Source: Dictyostelium discoideum
Lineage: Eukaryota
Direction: 5' to 3'
DNA length: 64,000 bases
NCBI GenBank assembly: GCA_000004695.1
Contig: CM000153.2
Location: 800,001 to 864,000 of the forward strand
How positions within the stretch are numbered: position 1 is the stretch's first letter; each line of letters begins with the position of its first letter. The position numbers were made by a program, and so were the translations under genes. Shown here in pieces: positions 4,025 through 20,235 of this stretch. Below the pieces are notes generated by a model. The model had not been told where the DNA came from. It worked only from the letters and a program-made list of their open reading frames with translations, and made no database searches.

Positions 4025-4690
4025 GTAAGAATTAAAACCATTCTTTATTGAAAAGGGAGTGCCAGAAATTGAAGTTTAATTTTTAATTTCATTTAATGGT
4101 ACTAAAGTACATAAGATATCCACAGTATCTGGTGGACTATTAATTACGAATGGAATTGAGAAATCTTGATTTGAAAGTAAAGGTGAAGGAGTTGAATAAT
4201 TGAGTTGTTTTTCAACATTTGAGTGATTAGTATTAAAAATATATCCTGGTGATGATGGAGAATTTTTAAATTGATTAATAATTTCAATTGGAATTTTATC
4301 TAGTCTACATTTTATTTTGCCAGTTAATTGTTGTAGATTGATTTAAGACCAAATCATTAATGTAAAATAATGATGATAAACATTTCTTTATGATTGAATG
4401 TATAATTGGATCATTTTTAGTTTTTTCAGATTGTTGTTTTAAAATATTCATTGTAATATCATCTACTGCATCTAAACCAATTGAATTTTGGAAACTTGGA
4501 TTATTTCTAAATGAATTTCTACCTTCTTTAATTAAATCATAAATTTCATGAACTTCTCTCCAAGAATTCTCACATTCTGTTAAAAGTTTAATAATATTTT
4601 CACCAACTTTAAAAATATTATTTAAATCGGCTTCTGGTGATGGGAAATTACCAGTACCAAGTGAACCAGGTCACATATAAAAGTCTAAAA
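4025..4690 (-). pseudogene. 3'-terminal fragment (~660 bp) of the GTPase-patatin paralog family. It contains stop codons and has no upstream exons
   Basis: Near-identical at nucleotide level to 10021-10680 (the 3' end of copy B). Homology ends abruptly at ~4690. There is an in-frame TAA (gaagtttaa) and small indels. No ORF is reported here. Confidence 0.7.
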
Positions 4691-4939
4691 CAAATTTAAT
4701 ACAAAAAAAAAAAAAAAAATTAAAATAAAATAAATAAAAAAATCTTTTAAAAATAGTCACAACAAAAATTAAAAAAAAAAAACATAACGATAAAAAAAAA
4801 CAGTTTAGGCCATTAATAATTTAAAAATGGATTTATTTTAAAAAAAAAAAAAAAAAAAAAAAAATTTTTTTTAATAAAATATTTCTTATTTTTTTTTTTT
4901 TTCAGATATTTTTAAATAATAAAATAGTCAATATTTTCC

Positions 4940-5190
4940 ATTTAGTTTATTTAAACTCATTTTATTCCAAATAAATTAATAAAATAGTCCCAAAAAATAA
5001 TAAGAAATTTTTTTTTTAAAAAAAAAAAAAAAAAAAAAAAAAAAAAAAAAAAAAATTAAATAAATGATTTTTAATTCATTTTTAAACAAAATAATTTAAA
5101 ATTAATATTTATCTCAGGTTATAAAAAAAGATATCAATAGATATTATAAAAGACCATAGATATTTATAATTTCCAAATCTATTTATATAA
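4940..5190. repeat. Direct repeat copy 2 flanking the pseudogene fragment
   Basis: See 3515-3790. Shared blocks are the poly(A) tract, catttttaaacaaaataa, ttatctcag, ccatagat and atttccaa(a/c)tctattt. Confidence 0.6.
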
Positions 5191-15330: not shown

Positions 15331-15505
15331 ATTTTTGTTTTTTTTCTATTTTTATTGTTAATTTTTAAAATTTTAGTTCTATTTTTTTTTTTTATTTTTT
15401 TTTTTTTATTATTATTTTGATTATTTAATTTTTTAATTCTATTATTATTTTTATTTTAATTTTTTTATTTATTTTTAATTTTATTATTATTATTATTATT
15501 TTTTT

Positions 15506-18500
15506 TTAATCCTCCAAAAGTATGAATAAATTATTTATACCATTCTTTATTGAAAAGGGAGTGCCAGAAATTGAAGTTTCATTTTTAATTTCATTCAATG
15601 GTACTAAAGTACATAAGATATCAATAGTATCTGGTGGACTATTAATTACGAATGGAATTGAGAAATCTTTATTTGGAGGTAAAGGTGAAGGAGTTGAATA
15701 TTTAAATTGTTTTTCAACATTTGAGTGATTAGTATTAAAAATAAATACTGGTGATGAGTTTTTAAATTGATTATTAATTTCGATTGGAATTTTATCAAGC
15801 CTACATTTTATATTACCAGTTAATTGATTTGTAGATTGATTTAAGACCAAATCGTCAATGTAAAATAATGATGATAAACATTTCTTTATGATTGAATGTA
15901 TAATTGGATCATTTTTAGTTTTTTCAGATTGTTGTTTTAAAATATTCATTGTAATATCATCTACTGCATCTAAACCAATTGACTTTTTGGAAACTTGGAT
16001 TGTGTCTAAATGAATTTCTACCTTCTTTAATTATATCATAAATTTCATGAACTTCTCTCCTAGAATTTTCACATTCTGTTAAAAGATTAATAATCTTTTC
16101 ACCAAATCTAAATAAATTATTTAAATCTGCTTCTGGTGATGGGAAATTACCAGTACCAAGTGAAGCCAAAATATCAATATTTCTACCAGGCCACATATCT
16201 TTACACTCTTTCATTGCAACTTTACATGGATTATTATTGATTAAACCGCCATCTTGAAATTGACGATAATTAAATTCAAATTTTGAGAAAAAAGTTGGTG
16301 CAGCTGATGTTGCCTCTGCAGCGTCAATTACATTTGAATTGGTAATGAATTTCCTTTGTTCTGAACATCTTGTTGGGTTAGTCTTTTTTTGGTAATTTAA
16401 AAATAAACATTCCTCTAAATTACCAGATTCTTGAGTTACTGATGTAACTGCTACTCTAATTTTTGAGAATGAATTTTTTAATTTTTCATCAGGTGGGAAT
16501 ATAGTTTTGAAGGATTCTCTTAGTTTATCTCTACTATATTTTGGTTTTGATACTAGGTTAGCTAATAATTGGAATGGATGTTTTACAAATACACTTTTTG
16601 ATAAACTTTCCATTGCTGTACTTAATTGTGCAGGAGTCTTTTGTGTTGATGCTAATGCCAATGCAACCAATCCTCCTGCTGATGTACCAACGATTAAATC
16701 GAATAAAGAAATGATTGGAATGTCAAATAGTTGTTTTTGAATTTGTTCCAATGCATCACAATGTAAAATACCTCTTACACCACCACCATCTAATGATAAT
16801 ATTCTTACACCCATTGTTTGTATTTTATCGATTTCTTTGATCTTACAAGAAAGTTTTCCATTACATCCCCTTACTCTACAACCTTCGTCCGATGTATTTT
16901 GGGTTTGGTCAATAAATCTACCAAGTGAACAATTTAAACATAATAAATGACCACATGTATATGGTATATATGGCGAATTCAAACAACAACCAAAACAAAC
17001 ACCTTGATTTGTTGTTGAACCTTGTATATTGTATGGTAGAATTCTAGGTATACTAGTAAGACGATTACTTAAAAATACCGATAAATCAAAGTATTCTAAT
17101 GATGGCACAAATTCACCATCCCACATATACCTTACGAATGTGTCGGTTTTAAAAAATCCTAACAAACCACCATTTGATAATTTATAAGTTTCATTTGATT
17201 GATGGTTTCTATGAGTTTCTCTATAATTCGTACAAGAATGACCTTTTGCATTCTTTGAACTACATGGTACCATCTTAAATATTTCTTTTGAAACTAAATC
17301 TAAAGTCTTTTTAAAAGATGGATGCAATTTTTTTGAAAACTCTGAATTAATATTATTTGTTTCCTTAAAAATTGAATAAACGTTTGGCAACTTTATTTTC
17401 AAAATTTCTAAACTATCAGAATAACATTTTGATAATGATGATGATGGTTTATTCTCTACTAAATAATTATAATTTATTAAAAAAAATTCTAATAAATACT
17501 GTGCATATTTACAAAGATGTAAATCACTTAAATTATTATCAAGTTTTATGACAGATGTGTTTAATGGTGATGATTGTGATCTTTTTAATGGTGATTGTGA
17601 TGGAGTTGTTGATGAACTATTTGATAATTTTGATGGTTGTGGTGATGGTGGTTGTAATGGTGATGGCGATGGTGGCAATTCTAATGATTGATATGATTGT
17701 GATGGAGATGGTGATGGTGTTGATAGTGTTGATGATGATGGAGTTGTTGATGAACTATTTGGTAATGTTTTTAATTCACTAATTTGTCTTTGCTGTGATG
17801 GTGGTGGCGATTGTAATGATTGATATGATGGTGATGGTGTTAATTCAATAACTTGTCCTTTTTGTAAATTTTCATTATTATATTTATTATAATGGTCTTG
17901 TGGAACAGTATCATCAATCTCTGGACGTAAAAATGATTGAATTTGAAAAAGCTCATCTGCTATTGGTCTTTCTTCAAGTTGTGATTTATCAATGTAACTA
18001 TTATAATCTTTATCATTATTATTAATAATTTTATCATTACTATTATTAATATTACTATTAATATTATTATTATTATAATAATTATTATCATTACAATTAT
18101 TTTTATTATTAATAATATTATTATTATTATTAATAATAATATTATTATTATTATTATTTTTATTATTATTATAATTATAATTATAATTATTATTTTTATT
18201 ATTATTATTATTATAATTATTATTATTATAATTATTATTATTTAAATTATTGTCCGAATTATTTTTTGAATTTGTAAATTTATCTCTATTGATAGGAGAC
18301 AATCCGGTTTGTGGTTGTCTGTTATTTTCATTTAATGGTTTCAAATTTCCCACTGAATATGTTCTGACCCTATCTCTAACTAAATTTGATTCTAATTCAA
18401 CGGGTTTTGAAGTATGCAAAGGTGGTGGTGAATTAAAAATAGTATGAAGACTTTTAATTGATGATGACGGAATTGGTGTTGAGAGATGTGATTTATTAAC

Positions 18501-20235
18501 AACTCTAGAGTTATTACTATTATTGTTATTATTATTATTACTAATATTATTATTATTATTATTATTATTATTATTATTATTATTATTATTATTATTATTA
18601 TTATTATGATTATTATTATTATTATTATTATTATTATTATTACAAGAGATGGGCATTGATGGGATTGTTTTATTATTATTATTACTTTTATTATTATTAT
18701 TATTACTTTTATTATTACTACTATTATTATTATTATTATTATTATTATTATTATTATTATTATTATTATTATTATTATTATTATTATTATTATTATTATT
18801 AATATTATTATTATTATTATTAGAGAAGGACGTTGATGGAACAGTTTTATTATAAATTGGTTTTAATTTATGTGTACTTGGTAATGGTTTTTGTAGTTGA
18901 GCTTGATAATCATTAAGTGAAATTTCATCAAATTTTCTTACTATACCAGTACAATTTAATTTAATTAAATCAGGGGAACCATCTGGATTAGAACTAAAGA
19001 AACTAGCTAAACTTGAAATTTTTTGCATTGATCTTGATTTTTCAACCGAAATTTTTGGACTTCTGCTTTCTTTGTATTTTAAAGATTCCAATACTTTTTC
19101 ACTAATCGTTTCTTCCAATTTTTTAAATTGTCTTTGATATCTATGGAAGGTATTATTTGATTTTTCATTAAAATTAGGTAAGAAAATTATTGATACTGAT
19201 TGAAAACGTAATTGTAAGTCGATTAAATGTGAATGTTGATCTTTGAAATATTCATTCTTTGCGAATGCCATATCATCATATTGTTCTTTTTTAGAGGAAT
19301 TATTAAATAAGATGATTAAATGTGGACTGCATGGATTATTGGTACTATCGGCTGCAACCTGAGAATATTGGACTAATCTATCATAAACATCAGCTCTATT
19401 TCCTGCATTGCTATCAAATGTAAACACAAATACATCTGAACACAAATATAATAATCTTGGATATGAATATTGAATAAATGGAGTTCTTATTTGAGCTTCC
19501 TAATTTTTGTCAAAAAAAAAAAAAAAAAAAAAAAAAAAAAAAAAAAAAAAAAAAAAATTAATATTAATATATCTTTTGGAAAAAAAAAAAAAAAAAAATG
19601 ATAATAATAATTACTTGGAGTTTTATTTTATTTGTTGTTTGAGAATTTGTTCCATTTATACCTTCAGAATCAATTATTAAATATTTATAATTTTTATTAC
19701 TACCCATTGTTTCGCCAATAAAAGAATTAATATCAGAAGATGTTGAAGAAAGAGTTTCATGATTTCCAGGAATTGGATGGTTATAATTTTTAGTTAAATG
19801 ACCAATTGTAGTTGATTTACCTGAACCACTGGTACCAATAAAACTAACAACTAAAAATGGTTCATTATCAGATAACCCAATTGAATCCCATTTATTTCCA
19901 AAATCAATTTTCTTTGATAAAGTATTAATAAATAATAATTTATTATCTCTATCCATTGATTCATTATATTGTTTAATATGTTGATAATCTTTAGTGAATT
20001 GTTCATACTTTAAAAAAAATGTAACTTTTTTATATTCTTTATATGGTATAGTTTGATGATCTGTTTGTCCAGTATAACCTTTTTTACAAGAAGTACAAAC
20101 TATTTTATCATCAGTGCATCCCAGACAATAATGAAAGTCTTCAATATTTGTTGACTCTTTTAAACATCTTTTTAAACCACATTTCATTTTATTACTATGT
20201 CTATAAACTTCATCTTTTACAAATGTTTGTTTCAT
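15506..20235 (-). CDS. Copy C of the GTPase-patatin family. Exon 1 and most of the body are intact, but a 1-nt insertion near 15950-15980 shifts the frame so the last ~147 codons are read in another frame. This is a possible pseudogene or a sequence error
   Basis: Exon 1 is 19615-20235: MKQTFVKDEVYRHS..., GTSGSGKST, DSEGINGT, donor CTCCAA|GTAATT. Exon 2 is 19499 downward, starting after ttag: EAQIRTPFIQYSYPRLLYLCSD.... Body ORF 15957-19445 plus separate-frame ORF 15506-15949 encode the conserved C-terminus. Copy C has gactttttgg where copy B has gaattttgga. Confidence 0.65.

Follow-up and report, generated by a model that had tools for sequence, protein, structure and literature searches.

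What kind of protein is encoded by a row of very large, closely related genes in the social amoeba Dictyostelium discoideum, most of them damaged, and what could such a protein do? The question is raised by positions 4,025 to 20,235 of a stretch of 64,000 nucleotides (assembly GCA_000004695.1, contig CM000153.2, positions 800,001 to 864,000), which we call the window and to whose full length all coordinates below refer. Four related elements lie there head to tail in the order C, B, A, D, all on the minus strand, between a gene for calreticulin and a gene for a C2-domain protein. A preliminary description of this DNA had reported three paralogs and a 3' remnant in one orientation, and all four were found where it had placed them. 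We suggest that these are tandem genes for one conserved multidomain enzyme, evolving by birth and death, and that the enzyme joins a predicted large GTPase (guanosine triphosphatase), a RING-like finger and a patatin-type lipase in a single polypeptide. Taken as a whole, including the mechanism and the defence role proposed below, we give this explanation a roughly even chance of being right.

Domain composition of the intact gene

Judged from its reading frame, gene A is intact and not decaying, because its predicted product of 1313 amino acids is uninterrupted. Exon 1 (8835-9494; 220 codons), delimited from the open reading frame and the sequence, encodes a zinc finger, the P-loop GSSGSGKST (9069-9095), a switch-I-like TSSD and the motif DSEG (8925-8936). 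It ends within the G domain, of which it holds the first half. A predicted phase 0 intron of 101 nucleotides follows (8734-8834, GTTTGT...TTTAG), and exon 2 (5455-8733) continues through the stop codon. The joined exons form one continuous frame that is collinear with P0003, an uninterrupted protein of Tieghemostelium lacteum. From the N-terminus, the protein would consist of a B-box-like Cys/His zinc finger (~9315-9440), a G domain of the GBP/atlastin clade (its second half reaching to ~8404), a helical region with an Asn-rich insert (~7585-8163), a helical segment with a CCHH motif, a RING-type finger (6808-6939), a patatin domain (6163-6744) and a beta-rich C-terminal domain (~5491-5958).

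By sequence, the C-terminal catalytic domain is a patatin (PNPLA) domain, predicted to be a Ser-Asp phospholipase. Against a Pfam Patatin (PF01734) gathering cut-off of 27.7 bits, genes A, B and C score 98.6, 110.6 and 111.4 bits (E values of 7e-28 to 8e-32), the alpha/beta fold is that of patatin, and the nearest solved structures by sequence are those of CapV of the bacterial CBASS system (6e-14) and iPLA2beta (6.5e-10). The oxyanion hole DGGGVRG (6715-6735 in A), the nucleophile elbow GTSAGG (6616-6633) and the DGGL of the catalytic Asp (6190-6201) are present in all three genes, and the DGGGxxG, GTSxGG and DG columns are invariant in an alignment of 15 family members. The patatin-like phospholipase domain of the preliminary description is thus upheld. 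The beta-rich domain that follows patatin in gene A has the motifs SLFY[IF][DE], GxIxCRL and ISGxP and was modelled with a pLDDT (predicted local distance difference test) of up to 94; no Pfam family could be assigned to this conserved domain.

For the N-terminal domain, Pfam gave sub-threshold P-loop matches only, MMR_HSR1 being the best (E 0.002-0.04, and 1.8e-4 at best in relatives). Dynamin_N appeared below threshold in five of 19 members (E at least 0.006), the Pfam GBP profile (PF02263) was not matched at all, and a phmmer search of PDB gave no match at E <= 10. A word-index search with the spliced domain returned one decayed paralog. When 1.84 billion representatives were searched exhaustively by HMMER, using a profile built from exon 1 of A and C, only 29 proteins came up at E <= 1e-3, all of the same family.

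A structural model was made of residues 1-420 of P0003, in place of the window protein, from an alignment of 19 rows, the window exons among them; P0003 aligns to residues 27-402 of protein A with an E value of 3e-45. The model has a pLDDT of 80.3 and a predicted template modelling score (pTM) of 0.82. The preliminary description had proposed a structure search against GBP1 and atlastin. In one structure comparison Arf, Rab, SR-beta, HflX and other GTPases reached at most 11.8, and in Foldseek, as an independent search, the first ranks went to atlastin-1 and atlastin-3 (E 4e-10), GBP5, GBP1, GBP2 and RNF112. In the ortholog model the fold is therefore nearer to GBP and atlastin than to other GTPases. 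The P-loop reads GSSGSGKST in A and GTSGSGKST in C, and both genes have DSEG. Among 40 aligned G domains, GxxGxGKS, the switch-I-like [ST]-S-x-D, D-[SCT]-E-G and YPR[LI]LYxFSDV are near-invariant, with the third motif (G3) degenerate in a few. By its modelled fold and its motifs G1 to G3, the N-terminal domain is thus predicted to be a large GTPase of the GBP/atlastin clade. The earlier term, a dynamin-like GTPase of GBP/atlastin type, can be kept as far as the fold, the P-loop and DSEG (in A and C) are concerned; it does not extend to the G4 motif or to membership in the GBP, RHD3 or Dynamin_N profiles. Transmembrane segments were looked for and none was found.

Just upstream of patatin, genes A, B and C share a CFGCC...CGH..C..C cluster. 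The columns C-x2-C-x10-C-x-H-x2-C-x2-C are at least 90% conserved in the alignment of 15 members. The first six ligands agree exactly with the C3HC4 spacing of RING fingers; the last pair is C-x4-C (CRVPGC) in the window copies and CxxC in fungal members. In relatives, the segment gives weak matches to zf-RING_5 (11 of 15, with 5e-5 as the best E value for this profile) and zf-RING_UBOX (9 of 15), the best at an E value of ~3e-5 and all below the gathering score. Homology of this Cys/His cluster to RING appears to hold at the level of the family, and the word RING-like, already used in the preliminary description, is the fitting one.

Two further Cys/His groups may be mentioned. In the first ~60 residues of protein A there are eight ligands with B-box-like spacing (C19-x4-C24-x12-C37-x2-C40-x6-C47-x2-C50-x3-H54-x5-H60); weak matches to zf-B_box or ANCHR-like_BBOX were obtained in two of 19 members, and the ortholog model has a pLDDT of 51-66 there. 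Upstream of the RING-like cluster, at ~6990-7230 in gene A, lies a C-x8-C-x6-H-x2-H motif (...VPCGSKNVHGYSCTNFRGTHTKH...), which is kept in dictyostelid and fungal members and to which none of the Pfam profiles searched corresponds. It may be an extra zinc site.

Decay and turnover of the copies

The other elements of the array are damaged, each in its own way. Gene B (10010 to ~13969, open frame 10010-13927) is a 5'-truncated paralog that consists of exon 2 only, with the RING-like cluster (11438-11506) and the patatin motifs (11279-11299, 11180-11197 and 10751-10762) all intact. Its homology to C breaks off at B 14026, equivalent to C 19545, within the intron of C, and the 1.5 kb of featureless AT-rich DNA upstream (14030-15500) contains no exon-1-like sequence; B has neither zinc finger nor P-loop nor DSEG. 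We also asked whether its exon 1 might lie elsewhere; a tblastn search with protein A against the whole window gave no further exon-1 copy. The preliminary description had attributed these three features to every copy, which is correct for A and C and not for B.

Gene C has an exon 1 (19615-20235) with zinc finger, P-loop and DSEG, a predicted phase 0 intron of 115 nucleotides (19500-19614, GTAATT...ATTAG) and an exon 2 (15506-19499) of ~96% identity to B, in which the patatin motifs are intact (16770-16790, 16671-16688 and 16242-16253). A one-nucleotide insertion at ~15975-15990 (CCAAAAAGTCAATTGG, where B has CCAAAATTCAATTGG) puts the sequence out of frame beyond ...NPSFQ, and translation would stop prematurely at 15957. 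We considered a small intron at this point and rejected it: splice signals are missing, and C differs from B by a single base in a run of A. Alternatively, the frameshift may be a sequencing error. Remnant D (4037-4668) is the last ~635 nucleotides of a copy of the B/C type (94% identity to B, 93% to C), damaged by a frameshift at ~4308-4340 and an in-frame TAA at ~4076-4078. The 3' flanks of D (3700-3770) and A (5130-5200) resemble each other over a short distance (...ctatgg(g)tctttgataata...attaa(t)...), so the duplication unit seems to have taken in downstream intergenic DNA.

The image of a pseudogenising array is accordingly right for B (5'-truncated), C (frameshifted) and D (a remnant), and wrong for A. 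Similarly, the low-complexity linker of more than 400 amino acids, rich in Asn, Ser, Pro and Gln, which had been ascribed to each copy, occurs in B and C only; in A the corresponding segment is ~residues 411-603. Since the helical region is continuous in T. lacteum, the Asn/Ser/Pro-rich linker is a loop insertion specific to Dictyostelium. Nucleotide identity between B and C is 96.0% over 2823 nucleotides and 92.7% over a repeat-rich 1530 nucleotides (protein 95-98%), and that of A to B or C is 74-79% (protein 61-67%), close to the values of about 97% and 60-70% estimated before.

How recent is this arrangement? A syntenic locus, L001, is available in assembly GCA_054859385.1, with ~95% identity to the window across the flanking genes. 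There, calreticulin is followed by two copies, numbered 1 and 2 in this direction, and these by the C2 gene and the Ras gene. Copy 1 is C/B-like, with ~91% nucleotide identity, and is called as an intact gene of 1379 amino acids. Copy 2 (6775-11436 of L001, syntenic to window 5324-9769) is A-like and a multi-frameshift pseudogene, of which residues 1-133 and ~591-1312 are left in four frames. There are thus two copies in L001 against three and a remnant in the window, and the intact and the decayed copies are exchanged between the two loci, which amounts to reciprocal decay. The B/C duplication (synonymous divergence, dS, 0.04) is specific to the lineage of the window, and so, probably, is D.

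Rates of substitution were estimated pairwise over whole genes (NG86). For the neighbours (calreticulin, C2 and Ras) against L001, non-synonymous divergence (dN) is 0.002-0.009, dS 0.016-0.055 and dN/dS 0.08-0.18. For the GTPase-patatin genes, dN is 0.035-0.075, dS 0.12-0.20 and dN/dS 0.20-0.35, or 0.62 where the partner is the pseudogene. Comparisons inside the window gave dN/dS values of 0.37-0.45 between A and either B or C, and of 0.34-0.51 between B and C. We conclude that the family shows rapid turnover and relaxed constraint, that is, relaxed purifying selection; positive selection is not demonstrated. The dS of the GTPase-patatin genes against L001 is itself 3-4 times that of the flanking genes. 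Possible causes are gene conversion, the survival of old alleles, or a codon bias of the highly expressed neighbours.

At this point one may ask whether the whole array is simply dead or dispensable, with A as its least-decayed relic, intact by chance. Two of the three copies and D are damaged in the window, the ortholog of A is destroyed in L001, and the G4 motif is degenerate, all of which would fit. However, chance would hardly have preserved an open frame of 3.9 kb at ~22% GC, all catalytic motifs of A are intact, orthologs are kept across Dictyostelia, and a dN/dS of 0.37-0.45 between A and C at a dS of ~0.6 implies long-term constraint. We regard a dead array as very improbable.

Distribution and previous descriptions

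A search with the C-terminal half returned full-length proteins of the same architecture from T. lacteum (which has two), Cavenderia fasciculata, Heterostelium album, Polysphondylium violaceum and D. purpureum. By the same search, they also occur in two assemblies named 'D. cf. discoideum', one of which has them as a tandem pair of adjacent genes (ACTFIZ_004361/2), in dozens of Ascomycota, several with multiple paralogs, and in unassigned environmental eukaryotes. A comparison of the domain combination across Amoebozoa had been recommended at the outset; the combination is kept in several dictyostelids, and its copy number differs in a close relative. The family is not confined to bacterivorous phagocytes, as the same architecture is common in Ascomycota. 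Among the C. fasciculata proteins is one of 1750 amino acids (P0090, DFA_02328) with three tandem G domains, the middle one without a P-loop, and with degenerate patatin motifs.

The annotations of the relatives go no further than 'hypothetical', 'patatin family protein' or 'PNPLA domain-containing', and no description of this domain combination was found in the searchable full-text literature, in agreement with the earlier suggestion of an undescribed family. In a 2021 review that goes through the dynamin-superfamily proteins of Dictyostelium, Sey1 and a single GBP homolog (gnbp, DDB_G0281639) are the only entries, and the array genes are left unmentioned (PMC8565484). Guessed dictyBase identifiers around crtA (DDB_G0283535-47) were matched to no paper. 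The 'patatin family protein' of two Dictyostelium papers turned out to be other or unmappable genes (DDB0191653; DDB_G0292746). Several fungal homologs (P0009, P0015, P0016 and others) carry, besides Patatin, the precomputed Pfam accession PF28431; it may be that the region before patatin has already received a domain definition from curators. The architecture as such is previously uncharacterised and is made of known domains.

Possible functions

What might such a protein do? Background knowledge on the parts gives a first hint, GBPs, CBASS CapV and the fungal patatin-NLRs all being proteins of conflict systems. We speculate as follows. Nucleotide binding by the G domain would lead to dimerisation or oligomerisation on a target membrane, by analogy with GBPs and atlastins, and the helical region would pass the change in the G domain onward. 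Through this assembly patatin would be positioned or activated and would hydrolyse phospholipids of the very membrane that bears it. The RING and the B-box-like finger might have a ubiquitin-ligase role or a role in higher-order assembly, as in RNF112 and TRIMs. If so, the protein would be an effector in cell-autonomous conflict or defence, directed against the membranes of pathogens or membranes that enclose them, with sensor or assembly module and membrane-damaging effector in one polypeptide. We favour such a role because of the identities of the parts (GBP-clade GTPase, patatin), the birth-and-death dynamics and the expansions of paralogs in fungi; being based on analogy, it is quite possible, at slightly less than an even chance.

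Several observations weigh against this account, and they concern each of its components. The G domain was modelled from an ortholog that is only 25-36% identical to the window protein. At the G4 position the window copies have LFNNS (FNNS) in place of NKxD or RD. Across the family the Asn is invariant and the Lys is present in ~60%, and a full NKxD is found in few members (NKVD in P0099, NKTD in P0113 and P0008). An arginine finger in the P-loop, as in GBP1 and atlastin, is missing. Because G4 is degenerate in the window copies, the word GTPase rests on the fold, and guanine specificity, the catalytic mechanism and even hydrolysis itself are putative. The RING-like cluster of gene A ends in the C-x4-C pair, gene A itself matches no RING profile, and its model has a pLDDT of 35-55 in this segment; together with the weak matches of the relatives, these are the reasons why we write RING-like. 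Some family members have degenerate patatin motifs. No pairwise comparison gave a dN/dS above 1 (the range is 0.20-0.51, and 0.62 against the pseudogene), so what survives of the proposed fast-evolving immune effector family is the turnover of copies and the pseudogenes between relatives, and not positive selection. The closest structural relatives include housekeeping proteins (atlastin, Sey1, SMG9 and iPLA2beta). Finally, the proposed role of an immune effector is an analogy, though a plausible one.

As a separate observation on patatin, several other dictyostelid paralogs (P0091, P0094, P0096 and P0097) show changes in the oxyanion hole or in GxSxG, so that the family may well include non-catalytic members.

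The housekeeping relatives invite another explanation. The protein could be an enzyme of membrane or lipid homeostasis, in which an atlastin/Sey1-like module steers a lipase of the PNPLA type during the remodelling of organelles (endoplasmic reticulum, lipid droplets, peroxisomes or autophagy); the array would then reflect neutral duplication and decay. An architecture that is kept across all dictyostelid groups and in many fungi, a dN/dS below 1 everywhere and the survival of one intact copy or more in the window as well as in L001 would be expected of such an enzyme. On the other hand, the array protein has no transmembrane segment, unlike atlastin and Sey1. Its divergence at the protein level is ~10-fold above that of the neighbours, genomes that are ~5% diverged disagree both in how many copies they have and in which copy is intact, there are multiple paralogs per fungal genome, and the phyletic spread is patchy (of the 1.84 billion representatives, only 29 at E <= 1e-3). 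Such divergence, copy turnover and patchiness are rare among housekeeping genes. We consider a housekeeping function unlikely on balance, while taking it seriously.

Relation to known systems

With GBP1, GBP2 and GBP5, the interferon-inducible GTPases of the dynamin superfamily, the array protein shares the G3 motif D-x-E-G (DTEG in GBPs), a helical extension after the G domain, the lack of a transmembrane segment and the arrangement of genes in tandem. Unlike GBPs, it shows no detectable sequence similarity to them (no Pfam GBP match, and none in PDB by phmmer at E <= 10) and lacks the P-loop arginine finger, the T/RD motif at G4 and the CaaX box. GBPs recruit separate effectors, whereas here the GTPase shares one covalent chain with a B-box-like finger, a RING and a patatin lipase. 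The atlastin/Sey1 (RHD3) GTPases, which fuse the endoplasmic reticulum, differ by their transmembrane hairpins and their domain context, and the evolutionary dynamics of the array are not housekeeping-like. RNF112 (ZNF179; PDB 9jju and 9jjx) also combines a RING with a GBP-like GTPase; its RING is N-terminal to the G domain, and it is membrane-anchored and has no lipase. In the array protein, by contrast, the RING lies ~300-700 residues downstream of the G domain and patatin follows.

The PNPLA lipases (iPLA2beta/PNPLA9, plant patatin, CapV/CapE, PlpD, VipD and ExoU) have the Pfam Patatin domain, the Gly-rich oxyanion hole, GxSxG and the DG dyad in common with the array protein. They differ in what regulates them: ankyrin repeats and calmodulin in iPLA2beta, a cyclic dinucleotide in CapV, ubiquitin or Rab5 in ExoU and VipD, and a fused dynamin-like GTPase and RING here.

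The fungal patatin-NLRs, such as PLP-1 of Neurospora, are generally known to unite a nucleoside triphosphatase (NTPase) switch and a patatin effector in one polypeptide and to form paralog families in fungi, as the array protein appears to do. PLP-1 begins with patatin, continues with a STAND NTPase (NB-ARC/NACHT) and ends with sensor repeats (TPR, ANK or WD); the N-terminal patatin, the STAND NTPase and the repeats are all missing from the array protein. The parallel raises the question of whether the protein might kill the cell that makes it. As an executioner in regulated cell death or in non-self recognition (allorecognition, anti-cheater or anti-virus), it would resemble PLP-1 or CapV, with an NTPase switch that frees a lipase on the cell's own membranes. 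The NTPase-plus-patatin logic would speak for this, as would CapV being the best sequence match among solved proteins, the birth-and-death dynamics of the locus and the occurrence of the family in fungi as well as in social amoebae, organisms whose cells fuse or aggregate and in which systems of non-self recognition are known. Nevertheless, a repeat-type sensor of NLR-like switches (LRR, TPR, WD or ANK) was not found, and the GTPase is of the dynamin/GBP class and not STAND. An executioner is in our opinion improbable, and an effector directed at pathogen membranes remains the reading that we prefer.

Neighbouring genes

The window has 12-40% GC and is AT-rich with poly-Asn coding tracts, as is typical for Dictyostelium. 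On one side of the array is the calreticulin gene (open reading frame 20858-21742, minus strand), whose product ends in HDEL and which has a dN/dS of 0.08 against L001; on the other is the C2 gene (3052-3468, plus strand; 138 amino acids with a single C2 domain), with a dN/dS of 0.18. Both flanking genes are under strong purifying selection in this comparison. Further away is an intact gene for a Ras-family small GTPase (136-795, plus strand; 219 amino acids), which has an N-terminal extension rich in Asn and Lys and 97% identity to the syntenic gene of L001. Between the Ras and C2 genes, at 982-2427 on the minus strand, there are overlapping or adjacent, Cys-rich open reading frames of 196, 266 and 78 amino acids, probably a single gene with introns.

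Implications

GBPs are central to cell-autonomous immunity in vertebrates, and both bacterial CBASS and fungal NLRs employ patatin lipases as effectors. A fusion of a GBP-clade GTPase with patatin and RING would join the themes of GBP, CBASS and NLR in one molecule. It is conceivable, although we find it rather doubtful, that amoebae and ascomycetes share an ancient, pre-metazoan, all-in-one form of GBP-type immunity, a cryptic, membrane-assembling GTPase with its own membrane-destroying patatin and its own RING ligase, whose function would be maintained through a constant gain and loss of genes, so that strains differ in the copies that survive. If true, the defence logic of GBPs would move back to the level of the common history of amoebae and fungi. 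For Dictyostelium, the family would add a second, sequence-cryptic lineage of the GBP clade that BLAST and Pfam have missed. D. discoideum is tractable and only gene A is intact; the hypothesis can therefore be tested directly through a single gene. Should the role prove to be housekeeping after all, the family would still represent a new way of coupling a dynamin-like GTPase with the hydrolysis of lipids.

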